A stretch of DNA of 64,000 nucleotides from an uncultured Poribacteria bacterium (GTDB taxonomy: Bacteria > Poribacteria > WGA-4E > WGA-3G): the NCBI GenBank assembly GCA_951813565.1, contig OX638351.1, positions 4,128,001 to 4,192,000 of the forward strand, given 5' to 3'. This document shows, piece by piece, positions 39,001 through 45,000 of this stretch. Each line of letters opens with the position of its first letter. The stretch's first letter is position 1. Made by a program: the position numbers.

Positions 39001-42000
39001 CACAATTACCTTTACATTGGCGAGGTTAGGAAACCTCGCCAGCGCATGCGTGTGGGAATTGCTGTTCATTGAAATGTGAACATATTATTGGATTTTACTA
39101 TAATATGGAGACCTGATCGCAGGTTAAAATTGACCAGAAACAGAAATACGTTGCGAGCCGCCGAGTGTATGTGTGTTGAAAGCGTAATCAACAAAAAAGG
39201 TCATGGTGCTGACTCGCAATTGGAGTCCGGTGCCAGCAGAAAATCCATGCCCATTCCAGCCACAACGTAAGGCAAGCGTGTTAAAGAGCCAGTATTCCGC
39301 GCCTGTGCGAAAGAGAAGTCCGCCGGAGTCTGTGCCTTCTTCTAAATCCGCTTGATCGGTTTCAAAGTCAGCACCGATGCTACCTTTGCCGAAGCTTGGA
39401 AAGGTGAATTGGTAAGCACCCCCAAATCGTAGTCGCCGCCCGCGAGTGAAAACGGGTTTATCCGCTGTGTCCCACCGAATTTGCGTGCCAGTGGCATCAA
39501 GTAACATAGTGCCGAACCGTAAACCTTTGTAAGGAGCGAGAATAAGACCGATGTCAATGCCGAAACCTCTTCCACTATTTTCAAAAATAGATTGACTCAG
39601 GAGTTTGAGGTTACCACCGACAGCCGCGATCGAATGGATTTGACGCGCATAAGAGATGAGCAAAGCGTTGTCGGTATTGCTAAAATATTCCGCAACTGTG
39701 GGGCGGTCGATATAGGGTTCACCTTCATCTTTAGTGCCGTTCCCGTTTATGTCCTGAAAATCGCCGAGGAAACCGTTATTATCAACATCAATGAAGGTAG
39801 TGCGTGGTATGTCGTCAATTCCGAGACGAATCCAACTCAAACCGAGGCTACCAATATCCTCAATTTGATGGACATAGTTGACAAAATTGTAATTTACCAA
39901 ACCTTTACTAAAAAAACTGCCATCGCCAGTACTGAATGTATCTGAATACATTGCTGAAAAACTATGTTTTTTGACATTCGTCAGACCGGCAGGATTCCAA
40001 TAAGTTGCGGTAGCATCGTCAGCGATTGCAACGAATGCACTTCCCATTCCGAGTGCGCGTGCCCCGACGCCATGGCTAAGAAACTCTGCCGCGTGTGATC
40101 CTTCATCAGCAGCAAAAGCGGTTAAAGGTAAGATGAAACCTATTGCGAGTACAAAGAGAGAGATTTTTGTTGTATTCATGATGTTTTTAGCCTGGTGCGA
40201 AGTCGTAGATCGGTTCACGGATAATGACGCTTAAAACGCTCCAGAACGCACCTACGCAGTATTCACCGAGGATAACTCCAAAGAAGAAGAAAATCATTTT
40301 TTGATATGTGCTGGGACCCCCAAATCGGAGTGCCATCCACTTAAGAAATGTACTAATAACGAGACAACTCCAAAAATAACCAACACCGAACGTCATGGAG
40401 ATGGGATAGCCTGCAGGATGGAGCGGCCACCAAATAAACCGCATCCGCATAAACATCAGTAAGAAAGTGAAGCCCATGCCACCTGCCATAAAACTCATGG
40501 CGGGGACGTTCGGATCGCGCGGGAAAGCAAAAAGACCAGCAAGCCATCCGAATTGGCCGATATGTCCAACTGACGGACCAATTCCGCCACCTGCGCCTGT
40601 GATTGCTCCACCGAGGCGATAGAGTTCACTCAGCGTTGCCCAGAATGCTGAGAGTGAGCCAAGCACAACAGCAATAATCATTGCCAACACCAATTTTTTC
40701 GTGTTCATGTTGGCGCGTTCAGCCATCTTGAAGGATTCAAGTTGATGTGGCATGATGTGTTCACGATAGCCGCGCCCACTAAAAAACCAAAAATACGGAA
40801 ACACTGTTAGGTTGTTAGGTCCGATGCGTCGCGTGCCCAAAATATTCACTAAAAATTGCTGCGCGTTGCACATCCCTGCCATCTCATGTGCGGGAGGACC
40901 CAATTCAGCACGAACACGTGTGATAGCGATTGAGATTGCGTAGAAAAATCCGAAGAAGGGAAGAATAATTGGGAGTGTCATCCCTGCCTTTAGACAGAAC
41001 CAGATAATATAGAGACTGGCGAGGATTATCAAGAAAAATGCTGTTCGATATCGTATCGGTTCCTGTGCATCGTCAATACCTCCTTGCATACCTAAGATCG
41101 TTCGGGCAACCTTTGCAATATGTCTACGCGTTACCAGCAGCGCGATGATGAAAATTGCCATCCATCCTCCTATGGACTGCTCACTACCATACGGAAAAGG
41201 TGCAGGAATTCCGACAGCACTCCCGAAAACACGTTGTATTTTCTCGAAAAGATAGAAGAACCATAGGGAAAAAGATAGGTCAAGTGGTAAAAGAAAGCCT
41301 AAACCGATTACAAATGGATATAGCGGAACAGGGATATTCCCAACAGCGTTCCACGGTTTTTCAGTGAAAAATGTCCCCCAATTACGCGCGTTATGTCGCA
41401 CACTGAAATCTGGAAGTATTGGGAAAAAATGAGCCAATCCGTGCCAAACATTCAGTATAGCTGCAGCAATAAAACCGTACCACAATAGTCGATTTCGGAA
41501 AAGTTGTGCTCTGCCACCGCCTTCTGTGATTGCCATCGGCAGTTGAATGATGGGATATGCCAGTTTCTCGTGTTCTGTCCACTGTTTACGAATAAGCACA
41601 TTTAGACAGATCATGATGGCACCGAGTGCAAGGATAAAAGATGTCCACCACAAGGTCGGCATAACCCATGCCCCACCTATCTGTGCGTTGTAGAACGGGG
41701 TATCGCCTTCGTAGAATCCACGAATAATTTCTTTATCGGCAACTACGAGGTGTTGTGGTATATAACTGTGGAATGTGCCAGCCCAATCATTTTCTATGGT
41801 AGCGAACCAAAAGGCATGTGGTAGTGCGGGGATAGTTAAAGCCAACATATCGTGTCCTGCCAAACCAGATGCAATAGAAAGCATAGCGTAGATGGTAATC
41901 ATCTCGCCTTGTGTCAATGCTGATTTTGGTGCTACGCGTTTGAGGAAAAGGTTTATTAGGATTAAGAAAAAGATGTTGAGAACGACATTCCAAAACAGAG

Positions 42001-45000
42001 AGATTGTTGTAGGATGTCCAGAGTGCCATACACACTCAACTTCAATGATCCAAAATACATTGGGTGGGATTAGGAAAATCGCAATGAGTATCGCACGCCA
42101 TGTGACACCGGACTCACGATTTTTGTTCAGTTCGCTGAGGTTTTGTACTGATGATTCCATATTTTTAGATATGACAATAGTTTCTTCAAGTTAAAAGTGT
42201 GTTAGCGGTTCGTTCTCTTTTAATTCCCATAGAATATGTCCGAATTCACAAGCACCGGGTGTGGAACCGCTGAAGATTTCTGTTTGGATACCCCAAGCTA
42301 ATTTATAGGCGGAGATAATTTGTGTCAACGAAGTGGAGACATCACCATAGCAGAGAATAGCCGCGGTCCCGCCGCCACCACCGCCAGTAATTTTAGCACC
42401 GTAGATCCCGCCCTGCTCACCAATTTTTTGTGCGATGTTGACAATTCCATCAATTTCGGGAGAACCGAGTCCGGCTAAATCACGATAGCTTGCATTTGAT
42501 TCGTACATGAGGCTCCCCGCTATTTTGAGAAAATCACGTGCGCGGTCCGGAAATTCATGAACATTTTTGAGGGCATTTATAAATTGTTTAACCCGTTCGT
42601 TTTCATAAATCGGATGTTTCACACAATTTCTAACCATGTATACTTTATGAGGGTCTACCTGTGTAACGGAATCAACGGTCTCACCGTATTTATTGAGAAA
42701 ATCGCTGCCTTGCATCTGTTCGGGTAAAAGCGTTTCACAATGCTCACGAAATTCTTGAACAGATAAATTACAGAGATAGTTATCTTTTAACTTTTCCCAT
42801 CCGAGTTCCTTTTTTAAGATTGATAACCCCATAAATGCTGCGGTACGTGTGTTGATGTACGCGTCACTTTTTGTGCTTCGCGGTGCTTTGGTGTGGATAC
42901 CAATAAAACTCACTTCTGACGGACATTCAACGAATTCAAGGATTTTATCCGGTTGGCAGAGGATAGAAAGTATTTTATTCCTCGCGCCAGCTGCGGAAGT
43001 CACTTGGTCCATGATCCCGCATGGCGCCCCAACGATTCGGTTTTCAACAATTTGTGCAATCCTCGCGATTTCCATCGCGTCCAAATTCAAATCGTAGAAT
43101 TGATTGAGTGCAGTTAACGTTGCGACTTCGATCGCGGCAGAGGAAGCGATACCTGCTCCCATCGGAATATCGCTTTTGAGAACAATCACTACACCGTGCG
43201 GAAACTTTTCAATTTTTTCTTCCTTTAACAGTGTAAACAAACAGCCGAGTATATATCCTGTCCACGTTGTTCGCGTATCCTTGTTAAAAAGATTTTTGAC
43301 CTGTGTGTACGATTTAAGAGCGCCATCAGCATAGAGATCATCAAGCGATATCTGAAAACTCGGTTTTAGTCGAGTATCGGTTTGAAGTGTCAGGACACAG
43401 AGATTTCTGTCTTCCCTTGCCTGGCACGCTACGACAGCAGCACGGTTTAGCGTCATTTCAAAGACGTTTGATCCACAATAATCTGCGATGCCACCCATTA
43501 TGTCAAGCCTTGCGGGGGCACGTGCAACTGTTATCCGCCCTTCATTCCGTAAACCGTGCGGACACAAAATATCTGGCGAATCACATTGTAAAAGATATTC
43601 AAGTTCAACAACCTGAAGCGTTTTTTCTTTGGGACCGTGAATCTGCTCAACTTTCATTTTGTATCTTTGGTCGCACGGTTTCCGGTGTGAATGTCCTTTT
43701 TAAAGTTTGCTACTATAACGTGAGTTTGGCATAAGCAATTTTGAGAATAGGAGCGGTTAGAAACCGCTCCATAACTGTCAATTTAAGGGTTTATTTCAGG
43801 TATCACACATTTTAACCCAAACAACACCGTAACCCGATTGTAGGGGTGGGTCTCTGTGCCCACCCGTTGTTTGAATACATCAGCAATGGCGGGCACAGAG
43901 ACCCCACCCTACAAGGTTTGAAGGGATTTATCCCCTAAATTGACGTCTATGGTGCGGTTAGAAACCACACCTACCGCGTCTATGAGAGTAGAATTCAAAG
44001 CATTAAGAACTGCATATTTCTTACACCGAACTCAGGTTCTTATAACTAACAAGGCATCAAGGATTAACAACCCTGACACTTTCTCCTACTTTGAGAGAAT
44101 GTTGTCCAGCAACGATGACGGAGTCTCCTTCACTCAGTCCGCCTCGTATTTCTACTTCACCGCCACGAGAAAGCCCTATTTCCACAGGACGACGTTTGCT
44201 CATGCCGGCTTCAACGACGAAAACATTTTGCGTTTTCGTTTCAGCATCTTCAATCAGTGAAACACGGGGAACCAAAATGGTACCTGTACGGATTTCGATA
44301 GGCACAGTGACTTTTGCGAACATTCCGGGTTTAAGAATACTTTCAACGTTATCAATATGAAATTCAACTTTTGCGGTGCGTTGCATCGGTTGTAAAGTCG
44401 GGCTAATGTAAGTAATCTTACCTATTATCGGCATGTTGATTCCCTCAACAATGATTGATGCTTGTTGATTAAGTGTCAATTGCGCCAGCTGGACTTCAAT
44501 CACATCTGCAGTAGCTTTGACTGTGTCAATATCTACAATTTCAAACAAGGGTGCTGTTGGAACTGCCATACCACCCTCATCTAAATAACGTTGTGAGACA
44601 ATACCAGCAATAGGTGCTTCAATTGTGGCATCTCTAAGTCGTTTTTTGGCAAGTTTAAGGGCAATGCTGGCTTGTGTACGAGCAGTCTTTGCAGTCGTAA
44701 TCTCTGCTTCCCAACTTTTTGCTTTTTCTAGTGCCTTTGCAGATATAAGACCTGCACGTGCTGTTTCAACTTGAGATTGTGCGAGTGCGATATCTTTTTC
44801 CCAAGTTTTTGTGGTGGCTTGTGCTTGTGCAAGTCTTAAACCAGCTTTTGCTTGTTCCACTTGTGCTTCCATCGCCTGAATGTCTTCTTCCCGCGCGCCG
44901 TTATCTATAAGTTGAAGTTGTTCTGTGGCGATTTTATGTTGTGCTTTTACAATATCTAACTGTGTTTGGCTGTTTTCAAGAGATTGCTGGCTAATAGCTC

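Follow-up and report, generated by a model that had tools for sequence, protein, structure and literature searches.

A poribacterial DUF6785/DUF6784 membrane protein with the predicted fold of Yellow Stripe 1, a probable divergent member of the OPT transporter superfamily

The locus and its paralogs

The window, a stretch of 64,000 nucleotides from an uncultured Poribacteria bacterium, carries on the minus strand at 40187..42160 a gene with an ATG start that encodes a membrane protein of 657 residues, characterized here from its open reading frame, Pfam matches, an AlphaFold2 (AF2) model and Foldseek and VIA-align structure comparisons. Residues 20-517 belong to Pfam family DUF6785 (PF20581; E 3.3e-164, 547.5 bits against a cut-off of 25) and residues 556-653 to DUF6784 (PF20580; E 4.4e-31, 107.5 bits against a cut-off of 26.4). 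The protein matched zero further Pfam families (hmmscan, E<=10), no NCBIfam model and no PDB sequence (phmmer, E<=10). A crude hydropathy scan gave 16 peaks, some of them overlapping; the OPT family is described as having 16 (or 17) transmembrane segments in about 600-700 residues (PMC3061005). Comparison of the N- and C-terminal halves by hhalign detected no internal repeat (E 0.35). A promoter and terminator scan of 38600-44300 gave counts close to the shuffled mean.

Thirty bp upstream on the same strand lies the gene of a 488-residue, galactokinase-like sugar kinase of the GHMP family (42191..43657, minus strand; Pfam GHMP_kinases_N, GalKase_gal_bdg and GHMP_kinases_C), which scores 179.8 bits with the TIGR00131 gal_kin model, below its cut-off of 226.65. 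The 3' end of the DUF6785 gene is overlapped by 32 bp by a gene encoding a 364-residue outer-membrane beta-barrel of the PorV/PorQ family (39124..40218, minus strand; NF033709 PorV_fam, 112.5 bits, cut-off 90). In the ortholog group of 25 genes, the kinase gene is the immediate upstream neighbour in 20 and lies one gene farther off in another, and the PorV-like gene is directly downstream in 19. Farther upstream, also on the minus strand, are genes for a 535-residue HlyD/RND-type periplasmic adaptor (44057..45664; TIGR01730, 226.5 bits, cut-off 94.9; Pfam HlyD_D23) and a 514-residue TolC-like outer-membrane efflux protein (45743..47287; Pfam OEP, E 1.9e-71).

The presence of this pair allows the reading that the 40187..42160 copy is an exporter, the inner-membrane partner in a tripartite system. 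The OEP and HlyD genes lack an adjoining pump gene (the next gene upstream is BNR/YCF48-like), the order OEP-HlyD-kinase-DUF6785 is found for most of the 25 ortholog-group genes and at one locus with 73% identity (L076) OEP-HlyD is followed at once by a tandem pair of DUF6785 genes, with no kinase gene between. However, most loci of the group are from close relatives (79-97% identity), so the shared order may reflect recency, and HlyD/OEP neighbours occur in only one of 33 ortholog groups. Moreover, locus L063 keeps the kinase-DUF6785-PorV run with a BNR gene preceding the kinase, OEP and HlyD being absent from the two upstream genes listed, and L066 and L070 carry an extra gene between HlyD and kinase. 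The known OPT members are all described as importers (PMC3061005). Given the gap of 399 bp between the HlyD and kinase genes, the adaptor gene is probably a separate unit, and we consider a role in export very unlikely.

A PF20581 search of the genome (5.43 Mb, one contig) gave 17 matches, none with an internal stop, in agreement with the 17 paralogs of the initial annotation. The 16 others are 29-44% identical to the 657-residue protein. Taken as longest open reading frames the paralogs have 630-699 residues; the earlier range was 630-658, and the difference is owing to the choice of start codon. The motifs conserved in the family are N124/W126, R191-W194-E198-P203, R415-R417-E419-G421, H581 and K607, among which the residues previously listed as invariant reappear with numbering shifted by +1 (N124, W126, R191, W194, E198 and K607). 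The conserved charged residues in 294 sequences are E86, R191, E198, R415, R417, E419, H425, E475, H581 and K607. Among the secondary-transporter families counted in the genome the 17 DUF6785 genes form the largest (MFS_1 has 14 and SSF four matches); the ABC permease family BPD_transp_1 has 19 matches.

Predicted fold and sequence relationship to OPT proteins

The AF2 model of the 657-residue protein, built from an alignment of 30 sequences (pLDDT 87.8, pTM 0.90), is all-helical, with helical hairpins and, short and broken ones included, 30 helices. Foldseek searches of the PDB matched barley Yellow Stripe 1 (HvYS1), the only solved member of the OPT superfamily, as chains 7wst_A (E 8.4e-9, TM 0.67/0.72, prob 1.00) and 7wsr_A (E 7.6e-8), with TM 0.66-0.72 for the two chains, the next hit having E 0.13. 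With VIA-align against 48,161 chains, 7wsr_A gave Z 24.4 and an rmsd of 4.0 Å over 558 of 600 residues (model residues 16-652), and the runner-up had Z 5.3. These values reproduce and strengthen the earlier report of YS1 as the sole fold match. As judged from the predicted model, the structural match extends across the whole chain, core and scaffold together, which places the protein in the OPT superfamily; along its entire length the DUF6785/DUF6784 protein matched the fold of YS1 alone.

The YS1 paper describes core and scaffold domains, inverted repeats, an elevator movement and proton symport, with proton sites Asp446, Asp490 and Asp494 of HvYS1 in the core domain and dimer contact via a C-terminal strand. 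The acidic residues conserved in DUF6785 proteins are E86, E198, E419 and E475. Likeness of fold is no proof of function, particularly at 12-13% identity, and the protein might be a polytopic membrane enzyme, sensor or structural protein that shares the YS1 architecture and transports nothing. Against this, the match spans core plus scaffold over 558 residues at Z 24.4, many charged residues predicted to be buried are conserved in the 294 sequences, tens of paralogs per genome are typical of nutrient transporters and Pfam shows no soluble catalytic domain attached. We therefore regard a non-transporter as improbable.

Sequence searches gave a fainter signal. A six-frame search of 121 Poribacteria genomes with the Pfam OPT profile (PF03169) matched frames of about 650 residues at E<=1e-3 in 76 of them; in 21 of the 121 the score exceeded the profile's gathering cut-off (25.8 bits), the best being 49.3 bits. 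The matches always fell on profile positions ~310-617, that is, the C-terminal half, and no full-length canonical OPT match was found in the 121 sampled genomes. In the 14 controls, matches were confined to Caulobacter and Bacteroides. Three of the matching poribacterial frames were checked, including that of 49.3 bits, and all three were DUF6785+DUF6784 proteins. Note that even the 49-bit frame had no OPT entry at E<=1 when hmmscan was run with default filters. When the genome under study was searched in six frames with sensitive settings (E<=1), a single paralog, other than the 657-residue protein, gave a match, at 22.5 bits and so below the cut-off; the remaining 16 of the 17 were unmatched. 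The 657-residue protein itself had no OPT match (hmmscan, E<=10; sensitive search, E<=1) and hence is not a PF03169 member; as relatives pass the cut-off, we file it under the OPT superfamily rather than under PF03169. One Atlas cluster is annotated with DUF6785 for 95%, DUF6784 for 81% and OPT for 11%.

An HMM made from 20 DUF6785-type proteins was searched against a combined set of 4195 genome ORFs and 120 canonical OPT proteins. The top seven non-family matches were all OPT proteins, which made up 20 of the 26 non-family matches listed but 2.8% of the database. Profile-profile comparison with canonical OPT by hhalign gave three weak, colinear segments, and the family alignment (A1) against 20 canonical OPT proteins (A2) reached an E of 0.041, which is not significant. 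In the reverse direction, a 120-sequence OPT HMM found no significant match among the 4195 ORFs (best paralog E 0.76), and the DUF6785 and DUF6784 HMMs left OPT unmatched at E<=10 in a genome that holds a canonical OPT. Searched against PDB sequences, the A1 family profile gave three chance matches at E~2, the YS1 sequence not being among them. The 657-residue protein contains neither the NPG nor the KIPPR motif, only GPP at 421; these motifs are reported in "many", not all, OPT members (PMC3061005). The sequence evidence for common descent of the DUF6785 family and OPT is weak but specific and, together with the full-length fold, it upholds the earlier proposal that the family is a divergent branch of OPT in bacteria.

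Distribution and gene neighbours of the family

PF20581 was found in all 121 sampled Poribacteria genomes, each having between 8 and 94 candidates at first look, and in none of 14 named control genomes. Of 81 Armatimonadota genomes sampled, 65 also carry the DUF6785 family, many of them in at least 16 scored copies; one Armatimonadota MAG has 27-29 copies, and in one such MAG a canonical OPT and DUF6785 proteins are found side by side. Archaeal proteins make up 85% of one Atlas cluster with 878 members. Compared with a set of only 27 Armatimonadota proteins, five of the 17 paralogs, including the product of the 40187..42160 gene, were nearer to one of these proteins than to any paralog of their own genome. 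As the family occurs in Armatimonadota and in a largely archaeal cluster, and as these five paralogs have nearer relatives in Armatimonadota, it is not the lineage-defining uptake system of Poribacteria that it had been taken for. A DUF6785 representative search gave 8082 clusters (50% identity) at E<=1e-3, the best 150 of which were all strong family members.

Neighbouring genes (88+39+107) were scanned. There was no constant neighbour across the 33 ortholog groups and no constant solute-binding-protein partner among the neighbours scanned. A sulfatase gene adjoins three of the 17 paralogs. Within 3 kb of the 47 sulfatase loci there were three of 17 paralogs versus 1.2 expected (P 0.12), and other distances gave P 0.15 (1 kb) and P 0.25 (5 kb). 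The initial annotation's statement that several paralogs lie beside sulfatases is therefore correct as a count, but as linkage it is within chance, and we rejected it as evidence. Prepilin-type DUF1559 proteins were considered as candidate binding partners and set aside: their genes adjoin seven of 28 Armatimonadota-type loci, but the genomes there have 58 to >150 such genes, and the Poribacteria genome under study has only four.

Carbohydrate-active neighbours recur. A CAZyme-type gene lies within two genes of the DUF6785 gene at eight of the 28 Armatimonadota-type loci, with GH39, GH42 and GH38 among the families, and at one locus (L149) genes for AP_endonuc_2, DUF6785, GH39 and DUF6785 follow one another closely on one strand. 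In five genomes, with loci L145, L150 and L151 among them, GH42 and DUF6785 genes are adjacent, although this is five of 30 GH42 loci, all of one clade, and the pairing was rejected as a general rule. The recurrent neighbours being mostly carbohydrate-related, we lean toward glycan-derived solutes.

The alternative is an OPT-type importer of classical substrates, namely oligopeptides, glutathione-like peptides or metal chelates from the sponge matrix. All characterized OPT members import peptides or metal-chelates, according to PMC3061005 and the YS1 paper. In addition, peptidase genes (S41, trypsin-like, M50B and C25) are within three genes of four of the 17 paralogs, and secreted metzincin/dockerin-type proteins recur near five of the 33 ortholog groups. 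However, at ~12-13% identity to YS1 and with no NPG or KIPPR motif the substrate is not transferable, the neighbours scanned hold neither nicotianamine or siderophore genes nor a conserved peptidase partner, and carbohydrate-active neighbours are commoner in Armatimonadota. For the oligopeptides or metal chelates proposed earlier the analysis gave no support beyond the family name, and we consider such substrates unlikely, though less so than export or a non-transport role.

Proposed role and comparison with known systems

We consider it probable that the DUF6785/DUF6784 proteins are secondary transporters of a divergent OPT branch that work as elevators in cation-coupled import, with glycan products the more likely solutes. 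In this sponge symbiont they would serve nutrient uptake. By analogy with YS1 and the OPT family description, elevator mechanism, cation coupling and import direction probably apply to them. The proteins would reside in the inner membrane, Pfam splitting them into the first ~500 residues (DUF6785) and the last ~100 (DUF6784), and a substrate-binding core domain would slide against a scaffold domain. Import would be driven by a cation gradient, probably of protons, and the conserved charged residues listed above, from E86 to K607, are candidate members of a network for coupling and binding. The paralogs may each carry different small organic solutes. In the least certain step, these would be mono- or oligosaccharides or sugar acids rather than peptides or metal chelates; oligosaccharide substrates have already been proposed for one prokaryotic OPT subcluster in Saier's analysis (PMC3061005). 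At 40187..42160 the tight arrangement of a sugar-1-kinase-like gene, the transporter gene and the PorV-like barrel gene suggests uptake of a galactose-type sugar, which would be phosphorylated on arrival.

A bolder and rather doubtful extension is that these proteins form a hitherto unrecognized class of OPT-fold elevators that need no binding protein and on which two phyla that scavenge carbohydrates, Poribacteria and Armatimonadota, and some archaea chiefly rely for importing sugars and oligosaccharides, tens of substrate-specialized paralogs per genome replacing the ABC or MFS sugar systems found elsewhere. If the sugar-importer reading is true, the OPT superfamily would gain a new substrate class and about 8000 clusters a function.

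A literature search gave no mention of DUF6785, DUF6784, PF20581 or PF20580, the main text of a 2026 preprint on YSL evolution lacks the term "DUF", and the family was not found in literature on Poribacteria transporters and Chthonomonas. What is new here is the weak sequence link between the DUF6785 family and OPT seen in profile searches. Two DUF Pfam families (8082 clusters) would be given a fold, placed in a superfamily and assigned a likely role, and the OPT superfamily would extend well past the fungal and plant carriers of peptides and metal chelates studied so far. Metabolic reconstructions of uncultured Poribacteria and Armatimonadota heterotrophs miss what may be their largest importer set, and cultured Armatimonadota would offer a bacterial system for the little-studied YS1 fold.

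TRAP/TTT systems are elevator-type secondary transporters that are expanded for nutrient scavenging in heterotrophs and require a solute-binding protein. The DUF6785 proteins resemble them in gene-family expansion and in the elevator mechanism proposed from YS1. However, the folds differ, TRAP/TTT proteins being absent from structural matches above Z 5.3, and DUF6785 genes are without a constant binding-protein partner. Canonical prokaryotic OPT proteins (PF03169; TC 2.A.67) share the length of about 630-660 residues and the polytopic helical build, and some DUF6785 proteins score above the OPT cut-off over the profile's C-terminal half. In contrast, the conserved motifs differ, the reverse searches fail and DUF6785 genes number tens per genome, whereas a single canonical OPT was found in one of the 81 sampled Armatimonadota genomes, so that canonical sequences for comparison were drawn from a protein-database search. 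The closest structural relative is HvYS1 of the YSL branch (PDB 7WSR/7WST), which is likewise all-helical and of similar length and has the same overall fold from end to end. Its sequence is only 12-13% identical, and HvYS1 is a eukaryotic carrier of Fe(III)-phytosiderophore, whereas the DUF6785 proteins described here are prokaryotic.

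The DUF6785+DUF6784 paralogs and their distribution

The 657-residue protein P0001 is encoded by an ORF of 657 codons with an ATG start on the minus strand (window 40187-42160). DUF6785 (PF20581) occupies residues 20-517 (Pfam E 3.3e-164) and DUF6784 (PF20580) residues 556-653 (E 4.4e-31). No further Pfam family was matched even at E<=10, NCBIfam has no model for the protein, and a search of PDB sequences gave no match at E<=10. The genome (G000), a single 5.43-Mb contig (C1), contains 17 intact DUF6785 matches, and P0001 is 29-44% identical to the other 16 paralogs. The ORF reading, the Pfam matches and the genome-wide count agree with the initial annotation, which had correctly described a real DUF6785+DUF6784 family of 17 paralogs. 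Two further paralogs lie outside the window, one about 6 kb before its start (G000:C1:4119863-4121815) and one about 19 kb after its end (4210996-4212912), and thus 3 of the 17 copies fall within about 93 kb. DDE_3 transposase genes directly adjoin two of the 17 paralogs (L018:8425-9252 and L023:4894-5925).

A database search returned 2350 homologs of P0001 at E<=1e-5 among 8000 scored, and a profile search gave 8082 clusters at E<=1e-3 from 1.84 billion representatives. The homologs came from Poribacteria and Armatimonadota and were named only "hypothetical protein" or "DUF6785 family protein"; our literature search found the names and accessions of DUF6785 and DUF6784 in no paper. DUF6785 was present in all 121 Poribacteria genomes sampled, with 8 to 94 first-look candidates per genome, of which only 11 per genome were scored. 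The genus of the window is at the low end of this range (8-21 first-look candidates per genome). The family had been proposed as a lineage-defining system of Poribacteria, but it is not lineage-specific, as 65 of the 81 sampled Armatimonadota genomes carry DUF6785, with at least 16 scored copies in many of them, and one 4.4-Mb Armatimonadota MAG has 27-29 family copies. Moreover, five of the 17 paralogs are nearer to an Armatimonadota protein (only 27 were compared) than to any paralog of their own genome. P0001 is one of these five (50% identity versus 45% to its best own-genome paralog). The subfamilies are therefore either old or have been exchanged between the phyla. Transporter gene counts in the genome were 17 for DUF6785, 14 for MFS_1, 4 for SSF and 19 for BPD_transp_1.

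Predicted fold and probable relation to the OPT superfamily

The AlphaFold2 model of P0001, computed from an alignment (A1) of the 17 paralogs and 13 more distant homologs, had a mean pLDDT of 87.8 and a pTM of 0.90. When the model was compared with the PDB by Foldseek, only the two entries of barley Yellow Stripe 1 (YS1) were recovered (7wst_A, E 8.4e-9; 7wsr_A, E 7.6e-8; TM 0.66-0.72), the next match having an E of 0.13 and a TM of 0.14. A second structure search, independent of Foldseek and run on 48,161 representative chains, gave 7wsr_A at Z 24.4 and an rmsd of 4.0 Å with 558/600 residues aligned (model residues 16-652), the runner-up chain having Z 5.3. As the YS1 match spans DUF6785 and DUF6784 jointly, the two Pfam entries are, in the predicted model, pieces of a single YS1-type fold. 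The YS1 paper reported no structural homologs of the YS1 fold at that time.

Most of the direct sequence tests of homology between DUF6785 and the oligopeptide transporter (OPT) family, PF03169, were negative. YS1 was not recovered when the A1 profile was searched against the sequences of the PDB. Aligning A1 with 20 canonical bacterial OPT proteins in hhalign gave an E of only 0.041, and an HMM made from 120 canonical OPT proteins found no paralog significant among the 4195 genome ORFs. Likewise, in one Armatimonadota MAG the canonical OPT protein was missed by the DUF6785 and DUF6784 HMMs at E<=10. P0001 also lacks the NPG and KIPPR motifs, which the OPT paper (PMC3061005) assigns to many but not all OPT proteins.

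Four results point the opposite way. In a sensitive six-frame search, the Pfam OPT profile matched frames of about 650 aa at E<=1e-3 in 76 of the 121 sampled Poribacteria genomes and scored above the curated cut-off of 25.8 bits in 21 of the 121 (best score 49.3 bits), always on profile positions of about 310-617. Among 14 control genomes the profile matched only in Caulobacter and Bacteroides. The three frames that were checked are DUF6785+DUF6784 proteins, as is the sole, weak match within the genome under study (22.5 bits). These scores rest on one tool, the six-frame search: hmmscan run with its default filters reported no OPT match at E<=1 for the frames of L036, L039 and L041, which scored 41.8 to 49.3 bits in the genome search, all above the Pfam cut-off. 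We attribute the missing matches to the speed filters of hmmscan. The OPT link of DUF6785 proteins would escape routine annotation. The ESM-Atlas has a cluster of 878 proteins, mostly archaeal, of which 95% carry DUF6785, 81% DUF6784 and 11% OPT. A "bridge" HMM was built from 20 DUF6785 proteins having the OPT link and was searched against the 120 OPT proteins plus the 4195 ORFs. Its seven best non-family matches were all OPT proteins (best E 0.022), and OPT made up 20 of the 26 matches listed versus 2.8% of the database. Finally, hhalign with larger alignments gave three weak colinear segments, at the N-terminus, 201-293 against 152-233 and 594-657 against 552-617.

Taken together, the sequence links and the whole-chain fold match make common descent of the DUF6785/DUF6784 family and OPT likely. 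The YS1/OPT fold and superfamily assignment made for the two DUFs in the initial annotation was sound and is strengthened by the sequence link and the wider sampling. P0001 itself does not reach the PF03169 threshold and is therefore filed in the OPT superfamily rather than in that Pfam family.

Gene neighbourhoods

A gene for a galactokinase-like GHMP kinase of 488 aa lies 30 bp upstream of the P0001 gene, and a PorV/PorQ-family outer-membrane barrel gene (39124-40218, minus strand) overlaps its 3' end by 32 bp, giving the order kinase, transporter, barrel. In the P0001 ortholog group, whose loci are mostly those of close relatives (79-97% identity), the kinase gene immediately precedes 20 of the 25 genes, and the barrel gene immediately follows 19 of them. 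The PorV/PorQ-family gene is followed in many orthologous loci (L057-L074) by genes whose large secreted products carry dockerin, FlgD-Ig and Por_Secre_tail (type IX sorting) signals, a possible sign that Poribacteria have a type-IX-like sorting system.

Upstream of the kinase are genes for a TolC-like OEP and an HlyD/RND-type adaptor (window 44057-47287, minus strand), the next gene upstream encoding a BNR/YCF48-like protein (window 47843-49807). No inner-membrane pump gene lies beside the OEP/HlyD pair of the window and, at the related locus L076, such a pair directly precedes two tandem DUF6785 genes. Both observations would suit a P0001 subgroup that acts in export as part of a tripartite system with the TolC-like/HlyD-like pair, but only one of 33 ortholog groups shows the linkage, which is lost at L063, L066 and L070, and we consider an export role very unlikely.

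We scanned 88 genes neighbouring the other 16 paralogs, the window itself, and neighbour-cluster representatives (95 loci, 33 ortholog groups); no constant neighbour of DUF6785 genes was found across these loci. The commonest neighbours were small LamG-type proteins and sulfatases (6 of the 33 groups each), followed by secreted dockerin/FlgD-Ig/metzincin-type proteins (5) and enolase-superfamily dehydratases (4). With 49 Sulfatase and 79 Laminin_G_3 (LamG) matches in the genome, the latter mostly proteins of about 270 aa, both families are so large that their members adjoin many genes by chance. The sulfatases to which attention had been drawn beside several paralogs are at chance level in a permutation test (P 0.12), and their proximity was rejected as functional evidence. 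Four of the 17 paralogs have a peptidase gene nearby. The locus L029 contains two full-length tandem dnaN (DNA polymerase III beta-clamp) genes on the same strand (L029:2562-4959; G000:C1 about 2262520-2264917).

In 8 of the 28 Armatimonadota-type loci (107 neighbours scanned), a CAZyme-type gene stands no more than two genes away from DUF6785. L149 is a compact array, all on one strand, of a sugar-isomerase-like TIM barrel, DUF6785, GH39 and DUF6785, and a GH42 beta-galactosidase adjoins DUF6785 at L145, L150 and L151. The other CAZyme-type neighbours were GH38, GH16, GH106, GH31-like, pectate-lyase-like and GH123-like. Of 30 GH42 loci, 5 show the GH42-DUF6785 pairing, and these 5 belong to a single clade. 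In 7 of the 28 loci (L136, L141, L144, L148, L154, L083 and L085), proteins that bear a prepilin N-methylation motif, in most cases together with DUF1559 (Pfam name SBP_bac_10), were encoded within two genes of DUF6785. This enrichment is weak, since such proteins are very abundant there (from 58 to over 150 N_methyl matches per genome) and rare in the genome under study (4).

Substrate and transport mode

Poribacteria are described as carbohydrate scavengers, and among Armatimonadota the same lifestyle is ascribed to Chthonomonas. For one subcluster of prokaryotic OPT proteins, an earlier analysis (PMC3061005) suggested oligosaccharides as substrates. Given this scavenger lifestyle of both phyla, the subcluster proposal and the carbohydrate-related neighbours, we lean toward solutes derived from glycans and away from peptides or metal chelates, a preference rather than a result. 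The oligopeptide or metal-chelate substrate of the initial annotation is corrected to a tentative carbohydrate one, and transport of classical OPT substrates by the family seems unlikely. Residues E86, N124, W126, R191, W194, E198, Q328, R345, R415, R417, E419, H425 (88%), E475, H581 and K607 are each conserved in at least 88% of 294 family members, which makes them the obvious candidates for the sites of substrate and protons.

A non-transport role for P0001 is very unlikely, and the protein is a putative inner-membrane, cation-coupled importer. YS1, as its paper describes it, combines a transport "core" with a scaffold domain made of inverted repeats and works by elevator-like movement and proton symport. 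At the sequence level, an internal repeat went undetected. By analogy, P0001 may transport its solute by an elevator movement, as has been proposed for YS1.
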